Both the position numbers and the translations under genes were made by a program. The notes below the pieces were generated by a model that saw only the letters and a list, made by a program, of their open reading frames with translations, had not been told where the DNA came from and made no database searches. A DNA stretch of 64,000 nt from a virus (Duplodnaviria > Caudoviricetes). The stretch spans positions 128,001-192,000 of the IMG/VR virus record IMGVR_UViG_3300028805_000041; one strand, given 5' to 3'. Below, piece after piece: positions 31,707 to 63,201 of the stretch (position 1 is its first letter; each line of letters opens with the position of its first letter).

Positions 31707-34700
31707 ATGTCAGACAACAATCGCAATTTAAGGGTTAGGGCAAATATCAATGGCAACGAGAACAACGTATCGCTTAAACTTGACCAAGATATAGACAACA
31801 TAGATATCCTCTCATTGAGTATATCAACCGGTAATTTCTACAAATACCATACTTCTGATTATGGTTGTCTTGTCGGTAGGGTAATAGCAAATGGCGGTAT
31901 TGGCGTTCCCAATGCAAGAATTTCATTATTTGTACAGGCAGATAACAATTGGTTGGATGAGAACATTCTCTCTGATTTATATCCATACACGTCAGTTGTG
32001 ACAAAGAACAGTGATGGAATCAGGTATAATGTGCTGCCCGAAGAGGTGGTGTCGAAATGCCACACACCGGTTGGCACAATGCCAAGTAAACGAATGTTGC
32101 TTGATGACAGTAACATATTGGAAATATATGAGAATTTCTATAAATTCACCACTGTTACAAACAATGCCGGAGACTATATGCTGTTTGGAATACCTACTGG
32201 TGACCAAATAATACATATGGACCTTGACCTTTCAGATTGTGGTTATTTATCACAAAGACCGAGGGATATGATGTATAAGGGTTATAACATCGATATGTTT
32301 GAAAATGCGAACAAGTTTAAGAAAAGTGATAATATCGATGGTCTCCCACAAATCATATCTCAAAACAATAGTATTTACATTTACCCGTTTTGGAGTAATG
32401 ATGGTGAAAGTGAAGCCAAGATTACAAGAAATGACATAAGCGTAAACTATCAGTTTATTCCAACCTGTGTATTCATTGGTTCAATTGTATCTGATGAAGA
32501 AAGCAGTTCACTGTCCGAGAAATGCATACCGGCGGAAAGAATGGGTCAAATGAACCGTCTTATGACGGGAAGCGGAAGAATTGAAATGATCCGTAAAAAT
32601 GCAAACGGTGCTGTTGAGGAATTTCAGGTTCAGGGAACGGAACTAATCGACGGTAATGGAACGTGGTGTTATCAAATACCGATGAATCTTGACTATGTTA
32701 AGACTGACGAATATGGTAACCTTGTTCCTTCCGAGGATCCGAATGTTGGTATAGCAACAAGAACGAGAGTTCGTTTTAGAGTGTCTTTGAGCGATTACGA
32801 GAGTGACTATGGTGCAACACATATTGTCAAGATGCTTGTTCCGAATAATCCCAAGACATATGAGGATTATGAAGACACATTCCATTTTGGAAGTAAGACA
32901 AGTGATAACGAAGAGGGCACAAAATCATTTAGGGACCTGTTTTGGAACAATGTGTATACAGTAAAGTCATACATACCTAGAATACAGAAGGGCAATAGAA
33001 ATCGAAACAGGAAGTTTTCCGGTTTCAAGATGGTTAATATAGCCGAAGGAAAGAACCAAATACCATATAATAATCTCAGAGTAAGACTAACATTTATGTT
33101 TGTCCTCCAATGTGCAATCTTGAAGTTTATGATATGGGTTATGGGTGTGTTCAATAAACGCCTGTTGGTTGTTGCATATAAACTTGCGCGTCCAAAAAAG
33201 AAAAAGGAGTTAAAATGTGCAACACTTGGTGACGGTGTTTGTCCCGATCTTGATGGATGGTATTTTGCACCCAAGTGTACACACGGGAGTCTGTTTTCAC
33301 AGACGTTCCAATATCTTGATGATGAAAAGATTACAGATCCAAAATCAATCGATGCTATAAACAAGGACACCAGTGAACCCATATGTCTTACAAATGAGAT
33401 AGACTACCTCCTTCAATGTGTCGAAATAAATTTGGCTCAGGAGTATGAAGTAATAAAATTCGATTTCTACAATGATTGGATAAATGGACTCATCTATATT
33501 CCTCGTTGGACGGCAAAATATAGAAAGAAGAAGACACTTTTCTTTGGACTCATAAAGAGAAAGGCAAAAACTTTGGGGTGTTTTGACTATTCTTCAGAAT
33601 CACCATTTAGAAATTCAAGAAGACAAACACAACAATGCTCACTTGAATATAGAGAAAAGACAAATGGTGATGGTTATTATACTGAGATAACAAATTATGC
33701 CGGATGTCATAAAAGCAAAGAAAAATGTCATAAGACTCCTGGCAGAAATTATACAAGGGTCTTCAACGGAAACTTAAAAGCCGGTGGTGGACTTTGTCAT
33801 ATTGAGGAGACAATTAAGGGCGAAAAGGCATATTATTTCAAACCATGTGAATTTCATAAGAGTTATGATGGAACTTATGAAAACAGGATAATTATGTTTG
33901 CAACTGATTTGGTCCTTTTAGGCAGTCTTAACGAATGTGATGAAAATGGTATACCGATAGCATTCAAGGAATTACCATCAACGTCTTATAAAATGCCCGG
34001 TAATTTAGCCGGAACAAATATGGACAATGAAGGGTATATGTATTCCTATGGACAAACTAGACAATCAATATGTAAGAATAAGAAAATTGAAGAACCACTT
34101 CTTCCACTAACCGGTAGTTCACAAACATTAGGAAATTTTGTAAATTGGTCGAAAACCATTGAAGAATATGAAAAAGTACCAGATGACATAACAGAATATG
34201 CAGTGACCGAATCAGCCGGAATTGATTGGGGATGGACAGGACCAAATCAAGGTGAGTCCAATTCAAGTATACCATATTATCCCGGTGGACATTTCTTGGG
34301 TATTTCTTGTTTTAATGCACAGACAAACATCAAATCCTGCGTCAATCTATCAAGAGTTTGTGAGGTTGGTGCTGAAATATCATCAAGAAACTACGTTTTA
34401 TTGAAAAATAAGGACGATGTTGAGTTTGCATACACACAGCCAACCGGTTTTATTTCAAAAGATGAATTGTCTGACAGTCAGTTTAGAACCATGTTTGCTA
34501 CAATGAACATCAATGGTCTTAAGACTGTTATTGATAAGGACACAAATTATAGGAAATACGAGTTTATATCAAATGTCCCAACAAATTTTGGTGGGGAATT
34601 TGAAAAATACACCAATAATGAATATTACAACAAACTTAACAGTAGATCAGATAGGGGTGGTGACGTATCATCAACCGACGCATACTTGTTTACGAGGACA

Positions 34701-39551: not shown

Positions 39552-39601
39552 ATTCGGAAAAACTAATAACATCTCCGTTTGGGGTAAAAAATAAGACAAA
39601 T

Positions 39602-42600
39602 ATGGACAAACAATATACGATAATACTTGGTGAAAACAGGTCTAAGACAAGTACGAACAGTGATACAAACTTGACATTTGATATCGCTGACAATCGACGT
39701 GTATTACCCGAAGACACCATTGTGGGTAAAGTTGATGAATACGAGCAGTACATAAAGGAAAAGGACGCTTGTACTAAATTCAACATGATATTCACAATGA
39801 ATGTTGTTGCGTCAAATGTCTTATTTAACAGGGTGAGCGAGATTGTTTATCACGAGGGTTCTGATGATTGTATATTCTTTGGTCGGAACGGAGCATCAAC
39901 AAAAAACCTACCAGACAATATCAATGTTTATAATACCTATAAGACAAACGACAATGGTGAATATTTAGAGGAGGTCGGAAGGCGTGGAAAAAACATACTT
40001 GCATCTATGACATATTTGCCGATTAGTCTCAATCAAGGTGCTTCGTATAGCGACACTATATATTTTGCGGCTGACAGTTCCGTAACAATTATTGATGTTT
40101 ATACCGAGGAAACTAAATCTATAGAGATTACAGACGTTTTTGGAAAGTATTTCAACTATAAGGTAAAATATCAAGATAATGTTAATTACCCAAAGATTGG
40201 GAGTATTTTGATATGTGGTTTGAAGGGTACGGCATTCCAATATCAGGCTATTACATTTTTTATAAATTTTAGAACAGCCCAAGAAACACGAGGTTATATA
40301 ACGTTTAAAGACACAAATGGATATAAAACGGCAGTATATGTTGTTTCGGATGATGACACCACAGGAGGAACAATAGACGGAAATATAGAATTTAATAGGT
40401 TGCACAATGGAATTAATGTAGCGGGAGAAATATCCGCCAGTTTTAAGGAACTATATGTTAATGAATCAGGAAAAACAAATTCAAGAAGTGCTGCTTGGGC
40501 TACCGGAGATACTGTAGATAGTGATAGTAGTACATTTACTTATCATATAAGTAAAAACAAGGCAGATGATAATAATACCGGAAAACAAAGAGAAGGCTAT
40601 TTTGTATTCAAAAACAATAACCAAGAAGTTGGGCGTTTATATGTGTTTCAGGAAGCGGATAAAGATATAAGAGTATCCAGTGAATTAATGATGCGATATA
40701 ATCTCCTAAGGGACACCGCATATTCCCACAAGGATATTGGCGGGGTTGTATATCATTGCGGATATGATATATTCGGTAATCATATGTTAAGAAAGGGCGT
40801 ATTCAACGTTATTAATAAATTAGGTGAAAAAGAAACACCCGATAAAAAGATAAATTTCAACACCCTGTCTGATTACAATCGTGATTATAACGGGAATATA
40901 ATAAAAGATAATATTGCAACTATAATACATGGCAGAAATGGTGCAGCCGGTAGTGGAAATAGAAGTAACTTAAGGGTAAACAGGGAAACGAATAATACAC
41001 ACCAGTACCTTTACGACTCTGTATTGTCAATGAACGACACAATACGTGAGAGACTTGTTGAGAAGAACGGGTGGTTTGGTTTCATAAATCCGTCAGGAAT
41101 GGATATTAAGAATTATGGCGATATTTCCATAAACAAGTGTATGAACAACAACAAGGCTTGTGAACAGATAGATATGTATCCTGACAGGTCATTGTTCTAT
41201 GTGGTTCCAAAGTATAACAAATACAGACACAGGGTTGAAAACAATTGGGAATATTGTATAACATTCCCATATAAGAGCCTATACGACCACGAATTGGTAA
41301 CATCAAATAGGATAATAGTCGGTGAAAAATATGTGAACGGTTTGAAATGTGAACTGGTAACACGTTCTGCAACCATTCTATTCTCTTTGACAGATGAAAG
41401 ATATGAAGAGAGTGCGCTTGAATACAAGGACAATGTTGAAATAATGTTTTCATCCGATGTCAGTCATAATCTTTCCGTTGGGGACATAATTATTATGTGG
41501 GTGAAGTATAGCGGAGAGACTTATGAAATAACCACAGATATTGTAAGTGTCGGTGTTGGTGGAGACTATCCAAATAACTTTTTCACCATTAACAGCAGCG
41601 AATTCGCTAACATATTTTCAGAAATCACAAATGGGGTTGCTAACCCGAAAAAAGGCGTAATTGACTATGGCGATTATGACGAGGAATATGAATATGGTTT
41701 CATTAAATGGAATAACGAAGAAGATGAAATACGTATAGCAAAGGTTGTTAGGGGTAAACCGTGTGAGTACTACATAAGATTGTTCAAGAAACTCCCAAAT
41801 TTCAAAAACACGGATGCATATGCCGATGGCATTATCAGTGACGATGAGATACAGAAATACTCATCAAATGACTTCAATTCTTCATTGAACAATCTCGCAT
41901 TTTCAAACAACATATATGGCGACCCTATTGGGCAGATTGTTTTCAATGATGATATAGACATCAATGGTTTGAAGGACAATCTTGGGCGGGATGTGAGTGA
42001 ATTGTATCTCACCATCATAAAAACCAACAAGGGTTACAGGGAATGGTACGATGAAAAAGATTACGGCTCGGAAAATGTCGAATTTTCACATTGTTTTGGA
42101 AAAATTACCGCAGGATTTGACTTCTTACCTTATTCGGATGATTACAACATACATAAATTACATAATGTAAACCTTGATAGTTTTTCAGGTGAAAGTTTTA
42201 ATGAAATAAACAAGGAAACCGTCGATGGTAAAGAAATTCAATACGATAGTTCTTCAATTGAATCTTATTATAAGGAAATGACAAATTATGTGGATAGTCC
42301 GAAAAGTCTTGAGGGACCGTTTGATAGTGAAAATGAAGTAACCACATCGGGTGACACTTTTTTTGGCGAGAATAACCTGTTTTTTGGAGACGTTGCCGAG
42401 TTTTCATTGTATGATGTAAATGAGACCATCCTTGAAAATGTCAATTTCAGATTTAACACGGTACAGAGGGAATATACCAAAGACGCTGAGTTCTATGATT
42501 TTGTGTATGAGGATATAATAGAGGATGACTATAAATTGTTTGATTTGGGAAAGAAGGAAAGCAATTTTTCACCGTTCAAGACGAGTGCAGTCACATATAA

Positions 42601-43591
42601 TGTATTCAGAACAAATAAAAATCTGATTTATACACGAAAAAATAACGCTGATGTCAAAAAATATCTGTATAATCCAAGGTATCCGTTTAATATTGCCCCT
42701 GAGGGATATTATTATTCCCCGCATATAAGAATACCCGTAAGGGAATACTCCGAAGATATAAAACAAGGCACACATACAGAAATCAAGTTCGAACCGGCAA
42801 ACATAATATACAACGATTGTGACGGTATAGAAAGATGGGTGACAATGAATTGGAATAGTGCAATAAGTAATGATTGGAGTGGCGGAACCGTATTTAATAT
42901 AATCACTGCAAAGAACTATTATATGAATGTTGGTGATAGAGTATTTCTATATGAAATCGGCTCCGACGGCAAAAAGACAATATGGGGTCGTGTTATCGAA
43001 GTGTCCGGTAGAATGTACAACCACCTGACAATTAGATTTGATGAAAGTGTTGAATTATACATTGAGGATGGCGACATCAGAAAGTTCAAGTACAAACTGT
43101 TCAAGTATAATGTTGCCAAACCATCGAATGCAATCGAAATGAATGACGGAACAGGTAATTATCTATGGAGACCGTTCTTAAGCGAATCTGAGATGATGCG
43201 TGGAAATGAACTGTATGACAGACCATTTACCAACGGTAAAATATATGTACACAAGTTCGTTGACGTATTTCTTAGAAGACAGGACCCATATAATGAATAC
43301 GGCTTGAATTGTGACGATTGTTCAACAAAGATAAGCGATTTGACAATATATGGGGAATACAAGGATGTTTCTATGTATGAAAGCGAGGAAGCAACACAAA
43401 GTAAGATATGTGCGTCAGTTGTTGGTGATATGTTCTCAGATGTGGCTTCCCAACTTGAGACAAGGGCGAAGAACAAGGTATCTAACTTCAACATTGACAA
43501 GGTTATAAACACCTACAGAGAGAAGAGAAAGAAAGCTAAGGAAGAAGCAAAGGCGGCGGCTGAATCAAACGCACAACAAGGACAAGGGTAA
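39602..43591 (+). CDS. large virion structural protein with BACON-like insert
   Basis: 1329 aa in the structural operon; NNTGKQREGYFVFKN...LYVFQ resembles a BACON C-terminal motif. Confidence 0.55.
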   Translation: MDKQYTIILGENRSKTSTNSDTNLTFDIADNRRVLPEDTIVGKVDEYEQYIKEKDACTKFNMIFTMNVVASNVLFNRVSEIVYHEGSDDCIFFGRNGASTKNLPDNINVYNTYKTNDNGEYLEEVGRRGKNILASMTYLPISLNQGASYSDTIYFAADSSVTIIDVYTEETKSIEITDVFGKYFNYKVKYQDNVNYPKIGSILICGLKGTAFQYQAITFFINFRTAQETRGYITFKDTNGYKTAVYVVSDDDTTGGTIDGNIEFNRLHNGINVAGEISASFKELYVNESGKTNSRSAAWATGDTVDSDSSTFTYHISKNKADDNNTGKQREGYFVFKNNNQEVGRLYVFQEADKDIRVSSELMMRYNLLRDTAYSHKDIGGVVYHCGYDIFGNHMLRKGVFNVINKLGEKETPDKKINFNTLSDYNRDYNGNIIKDNIATIIHGRNGAAGSGNRSNLRVNRETNNTHQYLYDSVLSMNDTIRERLVEKNGWFGFINPSGMDIKNYGDISINKCMNNNKACEQIDMYPDRSLFYVVPKYNKYRHRVENNWEYCITFPYKSLYDHELVTSNRIIVGEKYVNGLKCELVTRSATILFSLTDERYEESALEYKDNVEIMFSSDVSHNLSVGDIIIMWVKYSGETYEITTDIVSVGVGGDYPNNFFTINSSEFANIFSEITNGVANPKKGVIDYGDYDEEYEYGFIKWNNEEDEIRIAKVVRGKPCEYYIRLFKKLPNFKNTDAYADGIISDDEIQKYSSNDFNSSLNNLAFSNNIYGDPIGQIVFNDDIDINGLKDNLGRDVSELYLTIIKTNKGYREWYDEKDYGSENVEFSHCFGKITAGFDFLPYSDDYNIHKLHNVNLDSFSGESFNEINKETVDGKEIQYDSSSIESYYKEMTNYVDSPKSLEGPFDSENEVTTSGDTFFGENNLFFGDVAEFSLYDVNETILENVNFRFNTVQREYTKDAEFYDFVYEDIIEDDYKLFDLGKKESNFSPFKTSAVTYNVFRTNKNLIYTRKNNADVKKYLYNPRYPFNIAPEGYYYSPHIRIPVREYSEDIKQGTHTEIKFEPANIIYNDCDGIERWVTMNWNSAISNDWSGGTVFNIITAKNYYMNVGDRVFLYEIGSDGKKTIWGRVIEVSGRMYNHLTIRFDESVELYIEDGDIRKFKYKLFKYNVAKPSNAIEMNDGTGNYLWRPFLSESEMMRGNELYDRPFTNGKIYVHKFVDVFLRRQDPYNEYGLNCDDCSTKISDLTIYGEYKDVSMYESEEATQSKICASVVGDMFSDVASQLETRAKNKVSNFNIDKVINTYREKRKKAKEEAKAAAESNAQQGQG

Positions 43592-49701: not shown

Positions 49702-52700
49702 ATGGCAAATTCAGGCGGATATATAGTAAGAAGAAGCAACTACACATTACTCCAGCACCATAAGTCTCTTTCATCGGGAACGATTTATGTAAGGGACTAC
49801 ATGACCACAAACGGAACAAATTGGGCTGCATCAGACACGCTTCCATATGGTGAATCGAATTTCAGGATAATCAGGACAAGACAAACACCGACAAGCCGTG
49901 AACACGGAAAGAACAATTGGGTATTGTGGTGTGATGGAAGCGAGGAGTCACCTGACGTTGAGTGTGATGTTTGGACTTATAATACAATTTCGGATGATAA
50001 GAGCACAGAGAGTGAAATAAAGATAAAGCCCGATTATTCGACATTACGTGACTTTGTATATTATGGAAGTTGTGTTGAGACAATAAAAAACGCAATTAAA
50101 CATATTATTACAACGTTCCCTGGTGAACTGTATGTAACTGACATTAAATATGGAAGTTTTAGAGACCTTGACAATATACACGACCCAAGTGGTGACACAA
50201 AAAACGAAGAGGAATTTGTAGTCGTTTCAAATCCGTTTAACATAAACATATCAAGTTTAAGGGTTCCATCACACATACCGAATCTTAACAGGATGAGATT
50301 TTTCTGTAATTATTTCGGAGATGTAAGTGCATATACCCATGAGATGTACAATCTTATAACATTTGTTGACAGGGGTGATGTGATAGAAGAGGTTATCGAA
50401 AATTTGGATTGGAATGTTGAAAGATTCTCCCCTAAATGCGGTAACGGACAATATATGGACGGACAACTTGTGGCAAAGGTAACAATAAAAACCGAGCCAA
50501 AGGCTTCCAGTGGCGACACAGAAGATGACAAATCGGGTGATTTTGTGATATATCAATTCTATAAGGACAGGGAATTCATACTCTTAACAGAACCGGTCAA
50601 TAAAAACAAGAGGATCAGACCGAATGAAGAATACATCACAGATTTCTTTAATAACCTGATTGGTGTAGAACAACTATTGCTCAATCCAAACAGTAATCCA
50701 AAATATACAACAAGGATAGAATATCCGTTTGAAAGTGAGTATGGCATCCTGACAAGACACGATGACATAACATGGCATACGGATAATGGCGGTTGGAATA
50801 TCATAGTCGATGCCAATATGGATTTATTCAGAAATTTTGTCAACAAACTGTTGGGTGTCGCGGAAGCGTATGATGAATACTACACAAACAATTTGTGGAA
50901 GAATATGGTTCATCCTTCAATTAAGAATATGGACCTTACATATGTTAACGAGAAGACACAGGAAGACAGTACAGACTTCAATATTGGTCTGACAAAGATG
51001 GAAAAACTGATGTATTCCTATGGCATTTTCTTTGACATTATTAAAAGACACATTGATAATATCAAGACCGTAAACAAGATTTCATATAACGGATATAACA
51101 ACAATCCGGACTATTTCCTGTCAGATATGGTTGATATGTCAGGATGGGAGGTATATAGCGCGGTGAACGGGCTTAACAGAAATGCCGTGACCGATGAAGA
51201 TATTTTTCCCGGACTTATTCAGCAGTTTACAACAAATGACGCAAATGTACACTTCCTCAGAAACCTTAAGATAAATTCAAAGAATATATTGTTGAACAAG
51301 GGAACAAGGGAAGGACTTGAAGAAATATTCGCACTATTTGGTTTAACCTCTTATGACTTTGCGGAAAGTCTTGCAAAAGTAAATGGGTTACCAACAGACA
51401 CAGGCTTAACCTATGACTATAAGATAGATGAGTTTATTTGTGTGGCAAAACCGAGAACTGGGTGTACCGGCATATACAGTGGCACAAGTGAACTTGATTG
51501 GACATTCGATGTTGATGATGATGCAAATGTAGAAGTGTTCAATACTTTTAAGAACACATACAATCCTGAGGGTGGAAAACTCGAAGGTTTGCCATTGGCA
51601 ACCGTTTATTGCACAAAAACAAATGACAGTGGTGACACATATACAATAAAATACTTCGTGCCTTGGTTCAATAACGGAACAAAATATGACGGTGATTTGT
51701 ATTATCAGATGAATGGCGGTTGGGGTAGTACAGACAAGATTATTCTCAATTCGAATACGCCAAGTCACAAATTGACTGCAATAACAGCAGATGACGAATA
51801 TAAACTGTATGATGAAACAGTAAGAAACCTTATTGTTGTTAGCAATGTGCACGACCTGACACTGATACCGCTTGCATTCTTGAGAGACGGTATGATAGTG
51901 AAATACGAACCAAACGATTACAGTTTGGATTTAGACCGTGTTGCAAGAGATATTGAATATGAGTTTGGTGTTACAGGAATAACAGATGAATGTTCGAATT
52001 ATTTCATATTGAGAAACAAAGACTATTCCAACTATTACTCAGACTATGGAATTGAAACAGATGAAGTTGACGATGGGGTTGACAGACGCGGGTGGGAAAA
52101 TATACCACAATCTGAGTTGGAAATGGAAGGAAGCGGAATGACGACAGATGCCAAGAAAGTCCTTTATGTGGAGAATATAATAGAGGACAAGAAGGCAAAC
52201 AACCCACATGATGGTTATTGGAAATACGATAGCGGTAAGGAATACATAGAGTATTTCGATAAAATCTTCAAATACTCCATAGAGAACAATAATTTCAATA
52301 GTAATGCATATTATTGTAACTCAGACCGTACAGCCGAATACGAAGATGAAAATCCGTGTAACCAATGCAATAATCTGTTGGACGAGATATCGTGTATAGG
52401 ATTTGACAACCTTATTGACAAGAATGGAAATGTCAACTATCTGTTGGATAATATGAAGTGTTGGTTTTTCTCGGACGGAACAAAAAATATTGATGCCGAA
52501 ACAGAAGGTGTTCCTGTTTACACTAAGTATAATGATGAAATGGAAACCATTAGTGGTATAACCGAAATACACAGAACGGTTGAATGTGCTGCCAGTGGAA
52601 ATACGGACCTCATCAATCACGTTGGCGAAATACCAATTGATGAAATGTACGATGATGTTGATTGCGCGATGCCATATAATGCTACGGGATATACTGAAAC

Positions 52701-52953
52701 AACCCGTCTTGATTCCGAATTCACACCATTTGACTTCGAGAGTGATGATAACGAGGGAAGAAATAACGAATCCGCCGCAAATTCAATCATCAATACAAAG
52801 GGTGTAAGAATTACATTCAATCTATGCGGTGATGAGGAAACCATCGAAGAAAGAGTGCATTTGTATCAGAGTATACTGAAATATGCAAAACAAGTAATAC
52901 CATCAGGTGCAATACTTGAAACAGTTTTTAACATAAAAAAAATAAAAAAATGA
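49702..52953 (+). CDS. baseplate wedge-like protein (tail protein I / gp7-like segment)
   Basis: 1083 aa; FFDIIKRHID...LSDMVDMSGW...ILLNKGTREGLEEIFALFG motif. Confidence 0.55.
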   Translation: MANSGGYIVRRSNYTLLQHHKSLSSGTIYVRDYMTTNGTNWAASDTLPYGESNFRIIRTRQTPTSREHGKNNWVLWCDGSEESPDVECDVWTYNTISDDKSTESEIKIKPDYSTLRDFVYYGSCVETIKNAIKHIITTFPGELYVTDIKYGSFRDLDNIHDPSGDTKNEEEFVVVSNPFNINISSLRVPSHIPNLNRMRFFCNYFGDVSAYTHEMYNLITFVDRGDVIEEVIENLDWNVERFSPKCGNGQYMDGQLVAKVTIKTEPKASSGDTEDDKSGDFVIYQFYKDREFILLTEPVNKNKRIRPNEEYITDFFNNLIGVEQLLLNPNSNPKYTTRIEYPFESEYGILTRHDDITWHTDNGGWNIIVDANMDLFRNFVNKLLGVAEAYDEYYTNNLWKNMVHPSIKNMDLTYVNEKTQEDSTDFNIGLTKMEKLMYSYGIFFDIIKRHIDNIKTVNKISYNGYNNNPDYFLSDMVDMSGWEVYSAVNGLNRNAVTDEDIFPGLIQQFTTNDANVHFLRNLKINSKNILLNKGTREGLEEIFALFGLTSYDFAESLAKVNGLPTDTGLTYDYKIDEFICVAKPRTGCTGIYSGTSELDWTFDVDDDANVEVFNTFKNTYNPEGGKLEGLPLATVYCTKTNDSGDTYTIKYFVPWFNNGTKYDGDLYYQMNGGWGSTDKIILNSNTPSHKLTAITADDEYKLYDETVRNLIVVSNVHDLTLIPLAFLRDGMIVKYEPNDYSLDLDRVARDIEYEFGVTGITDECSNYFILRNKDYSNYYSDYGIETDEVDDGVDRRGWENIPQSELEMEGSGMTTDAKKVLYVENIIEDKKANNPHDGYWKYDSGKEYIEYFDKIFKYSIENNNFNSNAYYCNSDRTAEYEDENPCNQCNNLLDEISCIGFDNLIDKNGNVNYLLDNMKCWFFSDGTKNIDAETEGVPVYTKYNDEMETISGITEIHRTVECAASGNTDLINHVGEIPIDEMYDDVDCAMPYNATGYTETTRLDSEFTPFDFESDDNEGRNNESAANSIINTKGVRITFNLCGDEETIEERVHLYQSILKYAKQVIPSGAILETVFNIKKIKK

Positions 52954-52960
52954 GCGAATC

Positions 52961-54786: not shown

Positions 54787-54801
54787 AAAATTAACTTTTG
54801 A

Positions 54802-54813
54802 ACAAATATACAA
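54802..54813 (-). promoter_or_regulatory. Bacteroidota-type promoter TTGTATATTTGT (primase-nuclease operon)
   Basis: Reverse complement of acaaatatacaa; same 12-mer as the three plus-strand copies. Confidence 0.65.
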
Positions 54814-54849
54814 AAAAAAATGGGCAATTCAAATTGAATCACCCATTTA
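54812..54849 (-). terminator. terminator of the fibre operon
   Basis: aaatggg...cccattt stem with an A run on its left, giving a U tail on the minus strand. Confidence 0.65.
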
Positions 54850-54870
54850 TCTTAGTTTAATAGTAAAAAA

Positions 54871-56553
54871 CTATTCAACATCATCGCCACCGTAGTAGAG
54901 CATACCGTAGAGAGCGCCACTTTCATTCTTTGCAATCTCAATGTGACCTGCATCAACAGTTGAAGCGGTACCCGTTTCGAGGTTAACCTCAACATTGTTG
55001 CCTGTAGCACCTGTGGTTACAGTGATTGTCTGACCGGTTGACTCAATCTTAGAAGCGTTGCTTGCAGCATCAATCTTCTGATAAACATCATCGAATGATT
55101 GAGTGATTGAACTTGTTGCGGGAAGAATTGTGGTAGCACCACTTGTTACAGCCTGACCAAGTTGGATTTCAGTTGCATCGATGGTTATTGCGGTACCTGT
55201 ATTGTTGTTGACACTCTGTACAGCAGTACCGGCAGCGGTAACGGCATCAGTAAGAGCCTGAGTAGCAGAAACGGTTACGGCGTGGTCTGTTGCGCTTGCA
55301 CTAACCAATGTATCACCTGTAGCAGTTACGTCAGGATATGAACCGTAAGTAACACTTATCTTACCATCGGTTTCGGTAACATCGGCAACAAATGAGTTTT
55401 CTGTTGGCTTTGTGTTTGTGGTGCTTCCATCCAAGCCTGCAATTGCTGTAGCAATCTTATTGTCAACAGAACCTGCGGTTGTGCTATCAGCCTTCAAGGT
55501 GTTGACATCACTTTCAATGGCCTGAGTTGTTGCACTAAGTTGACTGACGCCAGTGTTAACACCTTCAATTGCGGCAGCAATCTTTTGGTCAACAGAACCC
55601 GTAGTAGCACTGTTAGCATTCAGAGTTGTGATAGCCTGTGTGTTGGCACTTGTAAGACCACTGAGAGCCACAATGTCTTGAGAAACACCACTTGTGATTG
55701 CTGTGGCAGCAAAACCTTCAGTCGTCAAACCGGAGGCATCCTTAAGAACAACGTTACCGTTGTCGAGCATTACATCTACAATGTCAGTACGCATTAATGT
55801 TTCAATGTCGTCCGCATTTGCTTTGCTCTTGTCATAGAGGTCTTGAAGAGCGGCCTGTACTTTAGTTGTTGCAGCAACTTCGGTATCACCTGTGATGGCT
55901 GTGCCAATCTCGATGTCATTTGCATCAATGGTAACTGTATTACCGGTTTCACCATTTACGCTCTGAACGGCGCTGTTAGCATTTGCGACAGCAGAAGTAA
56001 GGTCCTGAGTAGCAGAAACAGTTACGCTGTGTCCTGTTGCAGTTGCACTAACCAATGTATCACCTGTAGCGGTTACTTGAGACTCAGTTGGGAGAGTACC
56101 ATAAGTTACGGTTACGATACCATCGGTTTCGGTTACGTCAGCAACGTATGCATTTTCTGCTGGCTTTGTGCCTTCGACAGCACCATCCAAACCTGCAATT
56201 GCTGTAGCAATCTTTTGGTCAACAGAACCTGAAACACCACTGTTAGCATTCAGGGTTTCAACATCAACTGCAATACCTGAAGTAGTTGCGCTGAGAGTGG
56301 CAAGGTCTTGAGTGATAGCGGTAGTAGCACCTGAGATAGAGTCAACGAATGCTCTCCAAGTAGCAAAACCTTCAGGAAGACTTCCAAGAAGAGTCTTTAT
56401 CTCTTCGGCTGTACCGTACTTCTTACCGTTAAGTTGGAGATAACCATCAGTCTTACCTGTGTTAGTTCTCACGAAATAGAGCACATCACTGTCAAATGTA
56501 CCAGTGGTGGCGCTTGTTAAAATAATACCTTTTAAAAGATGTTTGTTTTCCAT
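54871..56553 (-). CDS. Thr/Ala-rich fibre-like virion protein with internal duplication
   Basis: 560 aa; GSVDQKIATAIAGLD repeats, VQSVNG motif, C-terminus GGDDVE. Confidence 0.65.
   Translation of the reverse strand: MENKHLLKGIILTSATTGTFDSDVLYFVRTNTGKTDGYLQLNGKKYGTAEEIKTLLGSLPEGFATWRAFVDSISGATTAITQDLATLSATTSGIAVDVETLNANSGVSGSVDQKIATAIAGLDGAVEGTKPAENAYVADVTETDGIVTVTYGTLPTESQVTATGDTLVSATATGHSVTVSATQDLTSAVANANSAVQSVNGETGNTVTIDANDIEIGTAITGDTEVAATTKVQAALQDLYDKSKANADDIETLMRTDIVDVMLDNGNVVLKDASGLTTEGFAATAITSGVSQDIVALSGLTSANTQAITTLNANSATTGSVDQKIAAAIEGVNTGVSQLSATTQAIESDVNTLKADSTTAGSVDNKIATAIAGLDGSTTNTKPTENSFVADVTETDGKISVTYGSYPDVTATGDTLVSASATDHAVTVSATQALTDAVTAAGTAVQSVNNNTGTAITIDATEIQLGQAVTSGATTILPATSSITQSFDDVYQKIDAASNASKIESTGQTITVTTGATGNNVEVNLETGTASTVDAGHIEIAKNESGALYGMLYYGGDDVE
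55145..56296 (-). repeat. approximately 135-aa internal duplication in fibre gene
   Basis: LSATT...GSVD.KIATAIAGLDG...VADVTETDG...TATGDTLVSA...AVQSVN...TIDA occurs twice (about 55890-56296 and 55145-55540). Confidence 0.8.
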
Positions 56554-56580
56554 TCTGTTATAATTAATTAATTATCTTTA

Positions 56581-57180
56581 TTATGCGTTTGTTTCGAAAT
56601 CATCTCCTGCGAGAGATATTGCGGTCTCGGTTGAGGAGACGCGGACATCCAATGCCGCCACGTCGCTCTCAATGTCGCCAGAGGCCGACGATTGTGCGAT
56701 TTTTTGTAGTGAGTTGCCTGTAACAACGTATAATCCCGGATCGTATGTCGTATAGTCTTCGCCTTCGGGTTCTGTTGTTGTGTAAATTGTTTCACCGCTT
56801 TCTTCATATGAATATGTTCTTGTTTTCACATACACCATGCGTCCTGCGTTTTCAGGTGAAGCATATTCAAGGGCGTCGGAGTAGTCGTTTACCACCACAG
56901 TAGAGAGTGGCGAACCGACCTCCTTAAGACCCTTAACTCCATCTTCACCCTCAGTGATGACGTACACAGTAACATTACCGTTTTCGTATACGGTAAGAAC
57001 CTGTCCGACGAATGACGTACCGCCCAAACCCCTACTATCGCTACCATCACCTTTGGCGTAGGCAGTTGCATCAGCCAATGAACTGAACAAGTCTGTTCTG
57101 TCCAAAGGTACTGGTGCCGTTCTTTGGAGAACGTTTGCCCAGTTCAATTTACTTTTAAAAATTTCAATATAACTTGCCAT
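56581..57180 (-). CDS. fibre/decoration-family virion protein
   Basis: 199 aa; PVPLDRT...FVGQVLTV N-domain; C-module shared with 58747..59901; ends AGDDFETNA. Confidence 0.6.
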   Translation of the reverse strand: MASYIEIFKSKLNWANVLQRTAPVPLDRTDLFSSLADATAYAKGDGSDSRGLGGTSFVGQVLTVYENGNVTVYVITEGEDGVKGLKEVGSPLSTVVVNDYSDALEYASPENAGRMVYVKTRTYSYEESGETIYTTTEPEGEDYTTYDPGLYVVTGNSLQKIAQSSASGDIESDVAALDVRVSSTETAISLAGDDFETNA

Positions 57181-57192
57181 TTATTCTTTTAT

Positions 57193-58662
57193 TTATGATA
57201 ACGTTATTGTGTAGGTGTTAGCGTCAAGGTCAGTGGATGGTGTCCAAGACCAAACGTCATACGCTACTGAATCATAGTCGTTGGCCGAAAATACATTTAC
57301 ACTACCCTGTTTCTCGAAGTTACCCGTTATAGCGGCCTCAGATGCATTCCTGTCCGTAACCTTGACCAATGTCTTGTTTGCAGATGATGGGAAAGCAAAT
57401 AGGACTTGTTTCGTACCGTTTGCGGTTACGAGCGAGAGTGAATTGGAACTTGTCCATCCACTGTACTGTAAACCTCTTACTGTTGAACTTGTTATTTGGG
57501 CAACAGGAGAAGAGAGATAGCCGTAGAAGTATTTTCTTGCACCTGTTATTGTTTTTGATGCACTGTTTGTAGCGACAAGTGTCTTTCCGTTTGTCCAATC
57601 AGACGGTGTCGTGATTGTGAGCACATTATCCGTTTCCTTATCGTTCTGATAATAGTTGCCTAAGTTTGTGGCAATGTAGATATTGTCGTTAGACACAGTG
57701 TTGCTTGCAGTGTAAGTTTTACCTGATTGCGATACTGTCACCTTATTAGTGCCCTGCGTTACCGTCAATGCTTCACCATTGAGGTTTTCATTTGTTACCG
57801 TGCGTCCTGTTGCGCCGTTGAAACCTGTGTATGCAACGGTAAGTGAAACGTCCTCATTGCTGACAGTTGGTGTCAATGTTTGAGTATATTTTGTGTTTGA
57901 GTATTTGGTTTCGCCTATCTTGTAGCCGTAATCAAACGTTGATGCTGAAATATACTGAGATGCAGATGATGTCTTCGGTGAAACACTGCTCAAGGTAACA
58001 GTTGAACCGACCTCTTGTGTGGCTGCTGTGTTTGAAAGGGTGATTGTAGGTGCAGCAACAGACACACCGAAGTGATTGTACTGTTGTACACTTGCTGCCC
58101 ATTTCTCGACACAGAGCATACTTACGAGGAAATCCTGAATGGATGTTCCTGAAGGAATCTTACCATTCGAATATGCCTCCATTGCAAGGTCAGCCAAAGG
58201 TCCACCTGCGATTGTTATATCCGATGATGTGACAGTTGCGTCAGTATCAACTCCGTTAACTTCCAACTCATTGTTTGAATTGAGTTTCAGGAAGTTTTTG
58301 TTTGTGTCCACATCATCAACCGCATTTTCAGTTTCATCAGCAACGTTAACCGAAATGGCACCGTCATAAATGGTAATTGCAGAACCCTCTACAAGTTGTG
58401 CATCGGCAATCATTGATGCGATATCCACAGTATTACCTGTTTCGTCAATAATACCGGCGTCTGACAAAATCTGATAGATGTCATTAACAGACTCCATTGA
58501 TTCGTCATATACACCATAGCATCTATTACCGAAATAGATTTTACCATAGGTATCTTGTGCATTCTCACGAACTAACCACAAAAATGCTTTTCTATCCTCA
58601 ACAGAAGCGCTGTCATACGTAGATTGGTATGCTTGCTTTATACCTTTGAAGATTATTTCCAT
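57193..58662 (-). CDS. fibre/decoration-family virion protein with beta-rich C-terminal domain
   Basis: 489 aa; N-domain FKGIKQ...LWLVR...KIYFGNR shared with 58747..59901. Confidence 0.6.
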   Translation of the reverse strand: MEIIFKGIKQAYQSTYDSASVEDRKAFLWLVRENAQDTYGKIYFGNRCYGVYDESMESVNDIYQILSDAGIIDETGNTVDIASMIADAQLVEGSAITIYDGAISVNVADETENAVDDVDTNKNFLKLNSNNELEVNGVDTDATVTSSDITIAGGPLADLAMEAYSNGKIPSGTSIQDFLVSMLCVEKWAASVQQYNHFGVSVAAPTITLSNTAATQEVGSTVTLSSVSPKTSSASQYISASTFDYGYKIGETKYSNTKYTQTLTPTVSNEDVSLTVAYTGFNGATGRTVTNENLNGEALTVTQGTNKVTVSQSGKTYTASNTVSNDNIYIATNLGNYYQNDKETDNVLTITTPSDWTNGKTLVATNSASKTITGARKYFYGYLSSPVAQITSSTVRGLQYSGWTSSNSLSLVTANGTKQVLFAFPSSANKTLVKVTDRNASEAAITGNFEKQGSVNVFSANDYDSVAYDVWSWTPSTDLDANTYTITLS

Positions 58663-58700
58663 TTATATTGTGTTTGTTTCTTTTTTTGTTAGCTTATTTA

Positions 58701-58728
58701 GTTGGGGTAGGAATGTTCCCACCCCAAC
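58701..58728. other. GC-rich intergenic hairpin without U tail
   Basis: gttggggt-a-ggaa-tg-ttcc-c-accccaac. Confidence 0.6.
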
Positions 58729-58746
58729 ATGTGTGTTTGTGTTAAA

Positions 58747-59901
58747 TTACACCTCAACGTCGTCGCCTGTAATGGTGCTGTGCTTGTCAGCCTCCAAAAC
58801 AGTAACTCTCTGTTCGAGGTTAGCAACGGCTTGATCGATGTCGCCGCTTGCGGAAGTTGTACCAAGTTTTTGGACTGTGCCTTCACCTGTTACAACATAT
58901 GCACCCTCCGTATAACCTGTGTCACCATATTGGTTGGTGATATAGATTATCTGACCAAGATTGTCCTCTGAAGCGAGTTCCTCTGCTTCTGAGAGAGTTG
59001 CTGCGGTTGTTGTTGCCTTTTCTTCCAAGTCATTAACTGCACTGCTGATTTCGTTAATGTCTGAAGAAATGCCTGAAAGAGCCTCATTTACGTTTTCAAC
59101 TACTTCGTCAATGGCGTCTTCAACGTCTTGCTTTGTAGCATAGTTTGAGAGGTCAAGATTGAAACCGAGTTCAACCCATTCTGTTCCATTCCAAGCATAT
59201 TCCTTTTCTCCAACCTGATAAACGTCACCATTTTCTGCGTCGTTTGGAAGTTCTTCAATTGATTCAACTTCACCCTTGAAGTGCCATACACCCGCAATCT
59301 TACCATCAATTTCGTCCTTTGTGTAGACATTTTCGAGGTCGGCTGTAAGTCCTGAAATTACTTCGTTGATATCAGCAACATCAGACTTCAGGTCAGCAAC
59401 TTCGTCTTGGAGGTTTGAAACATCACCTTGAAGGTCAATGACGTCTTCCTTGATGTCAGCAACATCACCCTGTACTGCTTCAATGTCAGCAACAGCGGCT
59501 TGGAAATCAGCAACGTCCACCGTCTCAGTGAGAGCGGACTGTGCTTCTACGATTGCGCTTTCGAGGTTCTTGAGAATGTCGAGAACATCATCGGCGTTTT
59601 GAGAGAGAATTGGATGGTCTGCTGCGGTGTCTTCTCCGCCAAATGGGAAACCGACGAATTCGCCGTTTTCGTCTAAAAGACCACCAAATGCGGTTTTAAG
59701 GTTGTCAGCAAGAGTTGCAGCAGAACCGTCGTTTGTCTCAGCATAGAGACGATTACCAAAGTAAATCTTTGAACTTACAACGTCGCTACCGTCTAAATCT
59801 CTAACAACCCACAAATAGCCTTTCTTTTCTTCGGCTGTGTAGTCATTCAGATAACTGTTAAGAGTCACCTGTTTAATACCTAAAAATTTAGCATCTGCCA
59901 T
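58747..59901 (-). CDS. coiled-coil fibre protein
   Basis: 384 aa; heptads DVADIKE-DVIDLQG-DVSNLQD-EVADLKS; FKGEV...GDVYQV...YAWNGTEWVELG module; ends TGDDVEV. Confidence 0.7.
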   Translation of the reverse strand: MADAKFLGIKQVTLNSYLNDYTAEEKKGYLWVVRDLDGSDVVSSKIYFGNRLYAETNDGSAATLADNLKTAFGGLLDENGEFVGFPFGGEDTAADHPILSQNADDVLDILKNLESAIVEAQSALTETVDVADFQAAVADIEAVQGDVADIKEDVIDLQGDVSNLQDEVADLKSDVADINEVISGLTADLENVYTKDEIDGKIAGVWHFKGEVESIEELPNDAENGDVYQVGEKEYAWNGTEWVELGFNLDLSNYATKQDVEDAIDEVVENVNEALSGISSDINEISSAVNDLEEKATTTAATLSEAEELASEDNLGQIIYITNQYGDTGYTEGAYVVTGEGTVQKLGTTSASGDIDQAVANLEQRVTVLEADKHSTITGDDVEV

Positions 59902-59944
59902 AGTTTTTATAAACGTTTATATTTTAATTATTTATTATTATTTG

Positions 59945-60241
59945 TTAAATACCACTTGTTTCGACATCATTACCTGAAACAACGTCAAGGTTGGCTCTAC
60001 AGCCTTTTTTCTCCCATGATGTGTTTGACACACCACTCTTAAGCCAATATTCGGTTGGCTCTCCGTTTTCTCCGTTTAATACGGTTACTGTAAGACCAAT
60101 AAAACGTTGTGCTCTCGGAATGTCGTTAAGGTCAGCGAATTCAGGTACGGGCTGCATCTTTGCATCGAGATAGCCCTTTCCGCTCCATCTTCTTTGTTCA
60201 TCCAGTTCTACTGAATCTGTATAAGAAATTGTTCTTGCCAT
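59945..60241 (-). CDS. small fibre/decoration-family protein
   Basis: 98 aa; YLDAK...RFIGLTVTV...EYW domain; ends SGNDVETSGI. Confidence 0.6.
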   Translation of the reverse strand: MARTISYTDSVELDEQRRWSGKGYLDAKMQPVPEFADLNDIPRAQRFIGLTVTVLNGENGEPTEYWLKSGVSNTSWEKKGCRANLDVVSGNDVETSGI

Positions 60242-60243
60242 AT

Positions 60244-63201
60244 TTATAAAACTAATTTTTTACTCTTATCTGTTATTCCGACACTTGCAACACTCATCTT
60301 GTTCTTAATTACGAAACATTCTGTTCCGTCAATCATGACACCGGTCTCTGCAACAACATATTTTCTTGGGTTGGTGTTGTTTGATACCTCAGCACCGTCC
60401 TCTAAGATAGAATAGGTTGTAATGACCGAAGGAATTGCAATGACATAACCGTAATAATTATCAACTTCCCATTGTTCCCATTCTTCATCCGGAGCATCAT
60501 CAGCAGGCTCAGGAGTTGGTTCAGGTGAGAACATTGTCAGGTCATACGTATTGCCTGTTTCAACTTCAATACTATTCAATGTTGAATAATCAGTCAAATT
60601 GTCAATATCCGTATTCATAAGACAAGCATAGTATACCTTGTTTTTAATCTCTGTATATGTACCACTAATTGTCAGGTCCTGTGCCGGCATTGTTGTCGGT
60701 TCACTGTCCCAACTGAATACATATCCTTCACGTTCTGCCACTGTTGGGTAGACGATTGTTGAACCGTACTCAACACTTCCACTTGATACGAAATTACCAT
60801 CAACAATAAATGTCAGGATAAATGACTGAACCGCGTATTCACCATTTATGGTAACATCGTGCGCGGGCATATTTGTTATATTGCTGTCCCAAGCAAAATC
60901 ATACCCTTCACGTTCTGTGTGCGACGGATAAGTGATTACCGAGTTGTAATCCACACTTCCGCTTGATACGAAATTACCTTCGATTGTAAATGTCAGAACG
61001 TATTGGTTAATCGTGAACGTACCGTTGACCGTCATATCTTGTGCGGGCATTGTTTCCGGTAGTTCCTCATCCCAAGCGAAACTATAACCTTCCTTAGTCG
61101 GGTCACTTATTACAATCTCAGTTCCATAGTCTTGAGTAATGCTCGAATAAGGTTCATTGTCAATAGTGAGTGTCAGTGTGTATTGGTTAACTGTGAATAC
61201 ACCATTGATTGTCTGGTCATATGCGGGCATTGTAGCGGGAATTGGTTTCTCCCAAGCGAAACTATAGCCTTCTCTTGTCGGTTCGTCTACAATAATCTCT
61301 GTACCATAATTCAATGTGAGGCTCGTATAAACAGTACCATCTATTGAAAGATACAATGTGTACTGATTGATTGTAAATTCACCATTGATTGTCAAGTCTT
61401 GTGCGGGCATTGTTTCTGGCAGTTCCTCGTCCCAAGCAAAACTGTAGCCTTCCTTAGTTGGTTCCGCAACTGATATCACACTTCCATAATCCTGAGTGAT
61501 GCTTGAATATGCTTCACCACCAACTGTCAGTGTCAGTGTGTATTGGTTAACTGTGAATACACCATTGATTGTAGTGTCGCTACTTGGCATAGTTGCGGGA
61601 ATTGGAGTACTCCAAGCGAAACTGTAGCCCTCTTTAGTGGGATCAGTTACAGAGATTGCCGTTCCGAAGTCCTGTGTGAAACTTGTATAAGGTTCACCAT
61701 CGACTGTAAGTGTCAGTGTGTACTGATTGATGGTGAATGCACCATCGATAGTCACGTCGCTACTTGGCATTGTGGTCGGTAATGGAGAATCCCAAGCGAA
61801 ACTGTACCCTTCACGGGTTGGTGTTTCAACTGAAATTACGGTTCCAAAGTCCTGAGTGATGCTTGTGTAAGGTTCACCTTCTACCGTCAATGTCAGTGTG
61901 TATTGGTTAACCGTGAATATGCCATTGATCGTGATGTCGCTACTTGGCATAGTTGCGGGAATTGGAGTACTCCAAGCGAAACTGTAGCCCTCCTTAGTCG
62001 GGTCAGTTACAGATATTGCAGTGCCAAAGTCCTGAGTGAAACTTGTATAAGGTTTCCCATCAACTGTAAGTGTCAGTGTATACTGATTAATGACGTGATC
62101 TACTGTTATTGTAATAACGTCAACGTCCGGAACAGTTGTTGGGTGCTCACCCCATACGATACGATAGCCTTCTTGTTCGTCGATTGTCGGGAGGACTATT
62201 GTATCTCCGTATGAATATGTTTGTGTCAAGTCATCTCTTTCGATGCCGTCCACAACATATTTAACTGTATATACTTTCGCGGTTGTTGTGCCTTGTATTT
62301 CTACATCATTATATGGCATAGTTTGTGGCACTTCGGTACTCCAACCATTGAATATATAACCCGTTGCGGGTGTATATGTGTATTCAGTTACGGTGGATTT
62401 GTATGCAAAACTGTCCGTATGTACAAGATTACCATCTACATAGTATTTGATATGATATGTATTTGGTGTTGTACGTCCATTGATTGTGATGTCCTCTGCT
62501 GGCATTGTGGAAGGTACGTTTTCCCAACCGTTGAATGTATAGCCCGTTTCGGGTGTCACATCAGGAGCAACTATCGTTTCACCGAACGCATAGTTTTTCT
62601 TAGTATATTCAACGCAGTCAAGGATGAATGTTATTACAAATCCATCCGCAACAATCTTTGTTGAATAATCGTACTTCTTGTCATCATACTTCAGAGTTGG
62701 GTCGATTGAACTCTCCTTAGAAATAAGGATATCTCCGGCAGAGTAATCACTTTCTTTGGGAGTAGCATAAATACCAACGTTGTATTTGCCCTTTGTCTTT
62801 GAAGGGACAGTGACCTTATAGGTTCCGCCACCTTCACTGACAACACCGCTTGATGGGTCTATATCAACAACGAACTTATCCTCGTTAAGGATAATTGTCA
62901 TTTCGACACTTGATTCCGTCTGATATTCAGGAGAAATGTTCATTTGATATCTTCCTGAAGTCTCAGTAAACGAGATATACAGTGTATTAGCCGTTGTTTC
63001 TGTGTCGCCGCTTGTGTCACCGCTCGTATCTCCGCTTGGCACGACAGGAACTCTGTTTTGCCAGTTCATTGCGTCCTCTGCGGACATTCCACACAGATCG
63101 ATATATGAGCCAAACGTATAGTATTTATCTTCGGTCAAGCAGTTGTCAAATGCATTATCCCACTCATAACCGTATAAAAAACTCGGTATTAATTTGCTCA
63201 T
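60244..63201 (-). CDS. InlB B-repeat (Listeria-Bacteroides repeat) surface/virion protein
   Basis: 985 aa; eleven roughly 60-aa units of type YTLT..VDG......YG......P..EGY.F.W...P.TMP..D.TI.G. Confidence 0.8.
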   Translation of the reverse strand: MSKLIPSFLYGYEWDNAFDNCLTEDKYYTFGSYIDLCGMSAEDAMNWQNRVPVVPSGDTSGDTSGDTETTANTLYISFTETSGRYQMNISPEYQTESSVEMTIILNEDKFVVDIDPSSGVVSEGGGTYKVTVPSKTKGKYNVGIYATPKESDYSAGDILISKESSIDPTLKYDDKKYDYSTKIVADGFVITFILDCVEYTKKNYAFGETIVAPDVTPETGYTFNGWENVPSTMPAEDITINGRTTPNTYHIKYYVDGNLVHTDSFAYKSTVTEYTYTPATGYIFNGWSTEVPQTMPYNDVEIQGTTTAKVYTVKYVVDGIERDDLTQTYSYGDTIVLPTIDEQEGYRIVWGEHPTTVPDVDVITITVDHVINQYTLTLTVDGKPYTSFTQDFGTAISVTDPTKEGYSFAWSTPIPATMPSSDITINGIFTVNQYTLTLTVEGEPYTSITQDFGTVISVETPTREGYSFAWDSPLPTTMPSSDVTIDGAFTINQYTLTLTVDGEPYTSFTQDFGTAISVTDPTKEGYSFAWSTPIPATMPSSDTTINGVFTVNQYTLTLTVGGEAYSSITQDYGSVISVAEPTKEGYSFAWDEELPETMPAQDLTINGEFTINQYTLYLSIDGTVYTSLTLNYGTEIIVDEPTREGYSFAWEKPIPATMPAYDQTINGVFTVNQYTLTLTIDNEPYSSITQDYGTEIVISDPTKEGYSFAWDEELPETMPAQDMTVNGTFTINQYVLTFTIEGNFVSSGSVDYNSVITYPSHTEREGYDFAWDSNITNMPAHDVTINGEYAVQSFILTFIVDGNFVSSGSVEYGSTIVYPTVAEREGYVFSWDSEPTTMPAQDLTISGTYTEIKNKVYYACLMNTDIDNLTDYSTLNSIEVETGNTYDLTMFSPEPTPEPADDAPDEEWEQWEVDNYYGYVIAIPSVITTYSILEDGAEVSNNTNPRKYVVAETGVMIDGTECFVIKNKMSVASVGITDKSKKLVL
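60650..62640 (-). repeat. 11 x approximately 180-nt coding tandem repeat
   Basis: 180-nt periodicity visible directly, e.g. cccaagcgaa/actgtagcc blocks at 61071, 61251, 61431, 61611, 61791 and 61971. Confidence 0.9.

Follow-up and report, generated by a model that had tools for sequence, protein, structure and literature searches.

Why does one four-residue peptide word recur in the putative outer virion proteins of an uncultured phage? The question is raised by a 64,000-nucleotide stretch of DNA (the window), which covers bases 128001-192000 of a single 211,223-bp virus contig, the IMG/VR record IMGVR_UViG_3300028805_000041 (G000), and in which predicted fibre and baseplate proteins are dotted with the word [ST]GxT (Ser or Thr, Gly, any residue, Thr). 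We find positive selection for this word, in the slightly wider form [ST]-[GA]-x-T, on outer virion proteins and its avoidance in enzymes, and we weigh whether it may mark sites at which the phage's own glycosyltransferases (GTs) attach sugars.

G000 is a T4-like jumbo myovirus. Using PHROGs and Pfam, we found in the window a baseplate hub, gp25- and gp6-like wedge proteins, a tape-measure-like protein, UvsX, DnaB, NrdD/NrdG, a primase and SbcD, and outside it a gp23-type major capsid protein (MCP), portal, terminase, sheath, tube and DNA polymerase. No cultured close relative was found; the best deposited-phage capsid matches, all below 40% identity, come from an uncultured 484-kb phage, Flavobacterium phage immuto and Microcystis phage Mel-JY01. 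IMG/VR contains at least 595 capsid relatives, and six family genomes (G000, G001, G002, G005, G006 and G007) were compared here. Genome-wide counts were made on greedily selected longest non-overlapping open reading frames (ORFs) of at least 60 aa, a crude calling that yields 221 ORFs in G000, and expected counts were taken from per-protein composition or from shuffles.

The motif is enriched beyond composition, repeats and DNA-level signals

In the G000 ORFs, [ST]GxT occurs 107 times against 33.5 ± 7.4 expected, and the excess that the original prediction had read from manual counts in the window thus holds genome-wide over composition-shuffled controls. An unbiased scan of all 8000 a-b-x-c words placed SGxT first (60 vs. 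16.2; Poisson value 5e-17, which like all such values ignores kinship among orthologues) and TGxT third (47 vs. 17.9). The same-composition control, the reversed motif T.G[ST], was flat (38 vs. 35), as was the Ser-ending [ST]GxS (30 vs. 31). Altered spacing gave no enrichment either, with [ST]GT at 31 vs. 35 and [ST]GxxT at or below expectation. AGxT fell below expectation (5 vs. 12.5), and words with Val or Ile at the last position were about flat (SGxV 17 vs. 14.4, SGxI 20 vs. 18).

The 107 sites lie in the coding frame, whereas each of the other five frames holds 10-27. Every Gly and Thr codon is used within the motif, with some preference for AGY Ser codons; the main carrier proteins are not paralogues, and the flanks are alike in only 3 of 5546 site pairs. 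As argued earlier from the varied codons and unrelated proteins, these observations together with the flat controls exclude composition, repeats and DNA signal and show that selection acts on the peptide word. Specifically, a DNA-level signal is ruled out by in-frame restriction and codon variety, and local composition by the flat reversed motif and by masking, i.e., the removal of G/S/T-rich windows before forward and reversed scoring. Paralogy or repeated modules are ruled out for most sites and hold only for LRR_5, Flg_new and three internal repeats. The Thr-rich composition of three carriers (560, 489 and 985 aa) and the large G/S/T-rich tracts that inflate raw counts in G007 and in LR756501, an independent 735-kb phage, could nevertheless point to a by-product of composition, low complexity, repeats or a DNA-level signal. 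Given that the reversed motif is flat in every genome, that masking leaves 1.66- to 2.43-fold enrichment in the family, and that the other frames are poor in sites and the flanks unrelated, we regard such an artefact as highly improbable.

The motif is [ST]-[GA]-x-T and its second position accepts Ala

Comparison of the six family genomes showed that SGxT (1.6-3.7 times expectation) and SAxT (2.1-3.3 times) are enriched in every genome. TGxT is enriched in four of them (1.8-2.6 times) and not in the other two (0.8 and 1.0), and the ratios of Ser-ending variants are close to 1 in all but a single low-complexity case. This pattern defines the motif as [ST]-[GA]-x-T with the core S-[GA]-x-T; the form first proposed, [S/T]-G-x-T, was therefore correct in its core and drawn too narrowly. 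The word needs Ser or Thr at position 0, Gly (or Ala) at position 1 and Thr at position 3, and neighbouring variants are flat. Thr at position 0 is accepted in G000, G002, G006 and G007 and not in G001 and G005, a division that no pattern of GT presence matches.

Pro does not occur at x in any of the 107 G000 sites and is almost absent there across genomes. Lys and Arg are depleted near sites, and in relatives Val, Ile, Phe and Leu are favoured at -1 and Thr at +5. Compared with the rest of the same proteins, the flanks contain fewer basic residues and are slightly more hydrophobic. They hold 2.57 vs. 2.51 acidic residues per 16, i.e., no difference, and the suggestion that copies sit in acidic, linker-like stretches was not borne out. 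Other patterns are not enriched, namely [^ST]GxT (68 vs. 78 in the outer proteins), N-x-S/T and SGxG, and D-(S/T)-(A/I/L/V/M/T) is depleted in the outer proteins (44 vs. 63.7 ± 7.1).

Sites accumulate on outer virion proteins and are avoided in enzymes

When the G000 proteins were sorted into classes, annotated enzymes had 2 [ST]GxT sites where 5.0 were expected. Virion proteins regarded as inner or buried, among them the portal, tube, hub, tape measure and gp6- and gp25-like proteins, had 4 (3.6 expected), and candidate outer proteins, a class drawn partly with knowledge of the motif, had 92 (15.6 expected). For [ST][GA]xT in all six genomes, the corresponding counts were 19 vs. 34.7 in enzymes (0.55-fold; reversed 39), 16 vs. 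20.2 in inner proteins and 207 vs. 49.5 in outer proteins (reversed 48). Within the window, the UvsX-like, DnaB-like, NrdD, NrdG, primase, SbcD-like and exonuclease ORFs and the gp6-like protein carry no site and the tape-measure-like protein carries one, as first noticed, and all counts reported earlier for the individual carriers were reproduced exactly (Table 1).

The 28 genes conserved in all six genomes provide a cleaner class test. Among their products, only the MCP (2, 4, 1, 0, 4 and 5 sites per genome), the sheath (6, 2, 8, 6, 5 and 5) and a 712-aa protein of unassigned role (6, 7, 5, 3, 13 and 4) carry the motif repeatedly. The conserved protease, scaffold-like protein, terminase, portal, tube, hub, polymerase, helicases and a conserved GT itself have 0-1 sites, and the tube orthologues have none in any of the six genomes. 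MCP orthologues (n = 73) contain 143 sites vs. 37.9 expected. In an alignment of 71 MCPs, all sites fall within reference residues 115-386 of 650, a variable insertion, where they are spread over 42 columns, and the conserved gp23 core contains none. In the G000 sheath, five of the six sites precede the conserved domains on the N-terminal side, in the region that forms the protruding domains in T4.

The motif is a family trait whose sites turn over quickly

The excess expected in relatives was present in all six related jumbo-phage genomes and the motif is thus a family trait. After masking, the forward/expected ratios were 2.43 (G000), 1.96 (G001), 2.39 (G002), 1.81 (G005), 2.17 (G006) and 1.66 (G007), with reversed ratios of 0.94-1.12. 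A set of 80 MCP loci contained 533 sites vs. 221.6 expected (reversed 217). LR756501, which has only 16 proteins in common with G000, is also enriched after masking (363 vs. 157.2, 2.31-fold; reversed 174, 1.11). No enrichment was seen in T4 (1.06), immuto (1.34), Mel-JY01 (1.28) or LR756508, the nearest capsid outgroup (1.13).

The individual sites are hardly conserved. In seven orthologue families, 7 of the 41 G000 sites share an alignment column with any orthologue, and the orthologues hold 25 sites of their own at other columns, often in indels or lineage-specific insertions. Each lineage keeps gaining the word on the same protein classes. The carriers in the window illustrate this. All six sites of the 2614-aa protein are in its C-terminal half, and its orthologues carry two sites in G001 and three in G002, all in other columns. 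Orthologues of the 1329-aa protein in the same two genomes have none, and four of its six sites stand opposite gaps there. The G001 orthologue of the 760-aa protein has two sites in different columns, and that of the 1083-aa protein has five, all at other columns inside an insertion of its own (G002: one site). Most of the 11 sites of the 931-aa protein are in lineage-specific insertions; a homologue with 52% identity has four sites and one with 44% has none. An inherited structural turn would predict the reverse of such fast turnover.

A structural turn as a possible explanation

To be weighed here is the view that the word is a structural block, with [ST]-G as the tight turn of a beta-hairpin and x-T as the beginning of the strand that follows, and that fast-evolving, beta-rich outer domains reuse this turn with nothing attached. 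The MCP model (pLDDT, the predicted local distance difference test score, 62.7) matches T4 gp23/gp24. In the site S173-G-I-T176, residues S173-G174 form a two-residue beta-hairpin turn between strands 164-172 and 175-183 (pLDDT about 77-83), and the site T311-G-E-T is in coil. The expectation that sites would be exposed is supported by their position in variable, outward parts (MCP insertion, sheath N-terminal region). The S173 site, the one modelled with fair confidence, is an ordinary hairpin turn. A model of the 931-aa protein, built from a 3-sequence alignment, was unusable (pLDDT 31.8); its relatives were absent from the phage and viral-contig collections searched and numbered only three in the protein collection.

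The residues preferred at -1 and +5 describe a strand-turn-strand context that would suit a purely structural role, as would the near absence of Pro at x and the slightly more hydrophobic flanks. Asn-Gly, another turn dipeptide, is also over-represented in G000 (457 vs. 278), and some sites belong to leucine-rich repeat (LRR) or Flg_new repeat consensus sequences. However, a strand start should also accept Val or Ile, and these reach only 1.2 (SGxV), 1.1 (SGxI), 1.1 (TGxV) and 0.6 (TGxI) times expectation; Ser is not enriched either. The strictness of Thr at +3, where Ser, Val and Ile do not substitute, is more easily reconciled with a recognised acceptor that carries a hydroxyl than with an ordinary strand start. 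Moreover, sites are gained independently and not kept among orthologues of the same fold, and the homologue of the 931-aa protein at 44% identity carries none of the 11. The beta-rich outer proteins of T4, immuto, Mel-JY01, LR756508 and E. coli phage muut are not enriched, and a neutral turn preference does not predict the depletion in family enzymes. The strict need for Thr, site turnover, unenriched other myoviruses and enzyme avoidance all weaken the purely structural explanation, which we consider unlikely.

Candidate glycosyltransferases are encoded outside the window

The original prediction saw no modifying enzyme in the window and pointed to the rest of the genome, where we indeed detected at least six soluble GT-like proteins and sugar-nucleotide enzymes. 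The GT-like proteins comprise two TOD1/MUCI70-like proteins encoded beside head genes, a GT11-like protein encoded after the portal gene, a GT2/GT92-like protein, a GT6-like protein and a 412-aa GT-B protein. Also encoded are a UDP-glucose dehydrogenase, a dTDP-4-dehydrorhamnose 3,5-epimerase (RmlC) and a TupA-like ATP-grasp enzyme. None of the GT-like proteins has a transmembrane-like segment (maximum KD19 1.41), and PHROGs and Pfam family scans of the G000 proteins gave no match to a flippase, polymerase or oligosaccharyltransferase. Since transmembrane segments, flippase and oligosaccharyltransferase are all missing, the system looks cytoplasmic and sequential. PDB sequence searches with three of the GTs gave no usable match, and NCBIfam gave sub-threshold matches only.

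The 412-aa GT-B protein is present in 9 of 9 related records searched, including G001, G002, G005 and G006-G010, and has a homologue in LR756501 (E 5.5e-51); no homologue was found in LR756508, immuto, Mel-JY01 or T4. The motif is enriched in 7 of 7 genomes with a full-length homologue and in 0 of 4 without, where the GT-positive genomes represent two independent lineages only. The co-occurrence of motif and enzyme that had been proposed is seen for this candidate GT, within the limits set by the two lineages and by phage muut (see below).

A soluble glycan-related gene run lies directly 5' of the prohead protease and capsid genes. It encodes a nucleotidyltransferase-like protein, the TupA-like ATP-grasp enzyme, both TOD1/MUCI70-like GTs and a protein consisting of the N-terminal domain of S-adenosylmethionine synthetase only. 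The TOD1 GT and ATP-grasp pair is common to G001 and G002 and is not present in G005, G006 and G007.

The selection signature itself (specific, surface-biased, quickly turned over, avoided in enzymes) would be the same if the word served another surface function. This could be a different modification, e.g., phosphorylation, or the docking of a small decoration protein, chaperone or ligand, for instance through an anion- or phosphate-binding [ST]-G-x-T loop. The depletion of Lys and Arg around sites is compatible with this. A flavodoxin review reportedly names 'T-G-X-T' (PMC7084853); this word would denote a phosphate loop. In the PHROGs and Pfam scans, however, no kinase, other modifier or small decoration protein stands out; instead, GT and sugar-nucleotide genes are numerous, and the motif co-occurs with one of the GTs. 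A docking site that occurs by the hundreds on each particle, scattered over unrelated folds, would be an unusual design. We find a surface function of this kind rather improbable.

A putative sequon for glycosylation of outward virion surfaces

The best-supported explanation, which in our judgement stands an even chance of being right, is that [ST]-[GA]-x-T is a putative acceptor sequon at which soluble GTs encoded by the phage itself O-glycosylate outward virion surfaces in the cytoplasm. Late in infection, the 412-aa GT-B or another phage GT would add a first sugar, on Thr (or on Ser/Thr), to motifs that lie exposed in turns and loops of the capsid insertion domain, the outer sheath domains, the conserved 712-aa protein and baseplate and fibre proteins. 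The lineage-variable GTs (TOD1/MUCI70-like, GT11-like, GT2/GT92-like and GT6-like) might then extend the glycan together with UDP-glucose dehydrogenase, RmlC and the TupA-like ATP-grasp enzyme. The outcome would be a sugar coat confined to outward surfaces.

Several points weigh against this proposal, besides the partly motif-informed outer class of G000 and the hairpin site and strand-like context described above. The attached sugar is a prediction from sequence. Some sites are determined by a fold, as in the BspA-type LRR consensus, a Flg_new repeat and internal repeats. The independent lineages behind the co-occurrence number just two on the GT-positive side and four on the GT-negative side. 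In E. coli phage muut, which encodes remote homologues of this GT (23% identity over 77% of the query, E 5e-11), four GT genes next to each other and a complete dTDP-rhamnose pathway, the motif is not enriched (51 vs. 44.6); this absence also ruled out muut as a cultured stand-in. The GTs could modify DNA or host polysaccharide instead. No hydroxymethylase or TET-type enzyme, which would point to DNA glycosylation, was seen in the 211 kb of a record that is probably incomplete: relatives run to 273-412 kb, and the list of enzymes is probably partial.

A broader version of the sequon proposal can be put forward more tentatively, as a possibility with less than even prospects. A large uncultured jumbo-phage clade and at least one unrelated 735-kb phage would share S/T-G/A-x-T as a universal putative sequon, read in the cytoplasm by the core soluble GT-B. 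Lineage-variable glycan gene sets would extend the sugar to a strain-specific coat on capsid, sheath and fibres, with attachment points evolving by fast gain and loss of the sequon.

Comparison with known glycosylation systems

The nearest known system is virion glycosylation in mycobacteriophages, whose O-glycosylation was reportedly described by Freeman et al. in 2023. There, phage-encoded GTs are thought to decorate structural proteins as a surface glycan coat, and G000 likewise encodes its own GTs. The mycobacteriophage glycans are located at the C-termini of capsid and tail-tube subunits (PMC12619734). In G000, by contrast, the candidate sites are an internal four-residue motif, located in the MCP at residues 115-386 of 650, and the tube has none. 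A short sequon is not known to be described for that system, and the sugar in G000 is a predicted one.

General O-glycosylation in Bacteroidota uses the motif D-(S/T)-(A/I/L/V/M/T) and is extracytoplasmic. It resembles the present case in that a short sequon of 3-4 residues marks many unrelated surface proteins. It differs in that its motif is depleted in the G000 outer proteins and that the G000 GT-like proteins lack transmembrane segments.

A third comparison is offered by Clostridioides difficile SgtA, a soluble GT that adds beta-O-linked N-acetylglucosamine (beta-O-GlcNAc) to Thr of the exosporium protein BclA3 (PMC7157674). In both cases the Thr belongs to a Gly-x-Thr stretch of a surface protein. 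The BclA3 sites lie in collagen-like GPT triplets, whereas the G000 sites never have Pro at x, their carriers do not resemble collagen and GxT without the preceding Ser/Thr shows no enrichment. Our literature search found no paper on [ST]GxT or SGXT/TGXT as a glycosylation motif.

If the sequon is true, phage particle glycosylation would have its first short sequon, and the placement of sugars on phage particles its first sequence rule. The sequon would explain what the GT and sugar-nucleotide genes of jumbo phages act on, providing the missing target of their 'sugar islands', and would make glycosylated surfaces predictable from sequence in thousands of uncultured phages. It might also serve as a compact tag for cytoplasmic glycoengineering. 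Even with nothing attached, it is an unusual signature of surface function that selection favours a four-residue word on outer virion proteins and keeps it out of enzymes, and that each lineage gains it anew.

Carrier proteins in the window and neighbouring genes

The positions of the carriers and of the other features are collected in Table 1.

Table 1. Motif carriers, candidate GTs and further features of G000. Positions refer to the window unless marked as genome positions, which lie outside it; sites are [ST]GxT counts with the expected number in brackets.
Feature	Position	Strand	Sites	Remarks
HNH/homing-endonuclease-like ORF	318-821	+		just 5' of the baseplate hub gene
Tape-measure-like protein	3247-6072		1	
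gp6-like protein	29447-31450		0	
2614-aa protein	31707..39551	+	6 (2.18)	directly after the gp6-like wedge gene; shuffle P 0.019
1329-aa fibre-block protein	39602..43591	+	6 (0.70)	no known family; 0 of 2000 shuffles reach 6
760-aa fibre-block protein	43604..45886	+	5 (0.47)	0 of 2000 shuffles reach 5
931-aa fibre-block protein	45889..48684	+	11 (0.61)	densest case; 0 of 2000 shuffles reach 11
1083-aa fibre-block protein	49702..52953	+	10 (0.72)	0 of 2000 shuffles reach 10
560-aa fibre-like protein	54871..56553	-	11 (2.09)	Thr-rich, internal repeat; 0 of 2000 shuffles reach 11
199-aa protein	56581..57180	-	1 (0.33)	not significant
489-aa protein	57193..58662	-	4 (0.98)	S/T-rich; shuffle P 0.016
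384-aa fibre protein	58747..59901	-	2 (0.26)	coiled-coil-like; coiled-coil-type Pfam matches below cut-offs
985-aa protein	60244..63201	-	5 (2.07)	Listeria-Bacteroides repeats (Flg_new, PF09479)
Lon-like ATP-dependent protease, 847 aa	genome 38538-41081			
Glycan-related gene run	genome 52.6-62.4 kb			
GT-like protein	genome 59332-60855			PHROGs and Pfam
GT-like protein	genome 60857-61522			PHROGs and Pfam
GT-like protein	genome 80067-80852			PHROGs and Pfam
GT-like protein, 412-aa GT-B	genome 92685-93923			PHROGs and Pfam; one of the 28 core genes
GT-like protein	genome 108812-110713			PHROGs and Pfam
1322-aa BspA-type LRR protein	genome 114953-118921			beside the sheath gene
GT-like protein	genome 204414-205112			PHROGs and Pfam

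The 2614-aa protein is a probable peripheral baseplate protein and has no family match except a sub-threshold one to Lcl_C. Only its N-terminal approximately 1150 residues are conserved in G001 and G002, where the protein has 2025 and 1910 aa, respectively. In the 931-aa protein, 11 of the 15 [ST]G dipeptides are part of [ST]GxT, and one site pair of the 560-aa protein falls in its internal repeat. The 985-aa protein carries SGDT three times near its N-terminus, and one further site (TGYT-FNGW) is within the repeat consensus. The protein holds about six tandem 180-bp (60-aa) Listeria-Bacteroides repeats, and such repeats also occur, at 43-60% identity, in the 1322-aa BspA-type LRR protein. They are probably host-adhesion modules exchanged between the two virion proteins.

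The Lon-like protease is a core gene product of the family and the best-conserved protein common to G000 and the unrelated LR756501 (E 2e-124). LR756501 further shows an extreme excess of S-G-x-S (1792 vs. 250) and encodes several proteins of 1200-3500 aa, half or more of which consist of G/S/T-rich tracts. Two other words stood out in the scans. T-I-x-G is over-represented in G000 (50 vs. 18), which we take, without a separate count, to reflect BspA-type LRR repeats that read [ST]-I-G-x-x-A-F. C-P-x-C is the top over-represented a-b-x-c word in G001, G002 and G005 (29-31 vs. 1.1-1.5 expected), with C-P-x-H also high, which suggests an expanded family of small Cys-rich proteins that is lacking in the 211 kb of G000.

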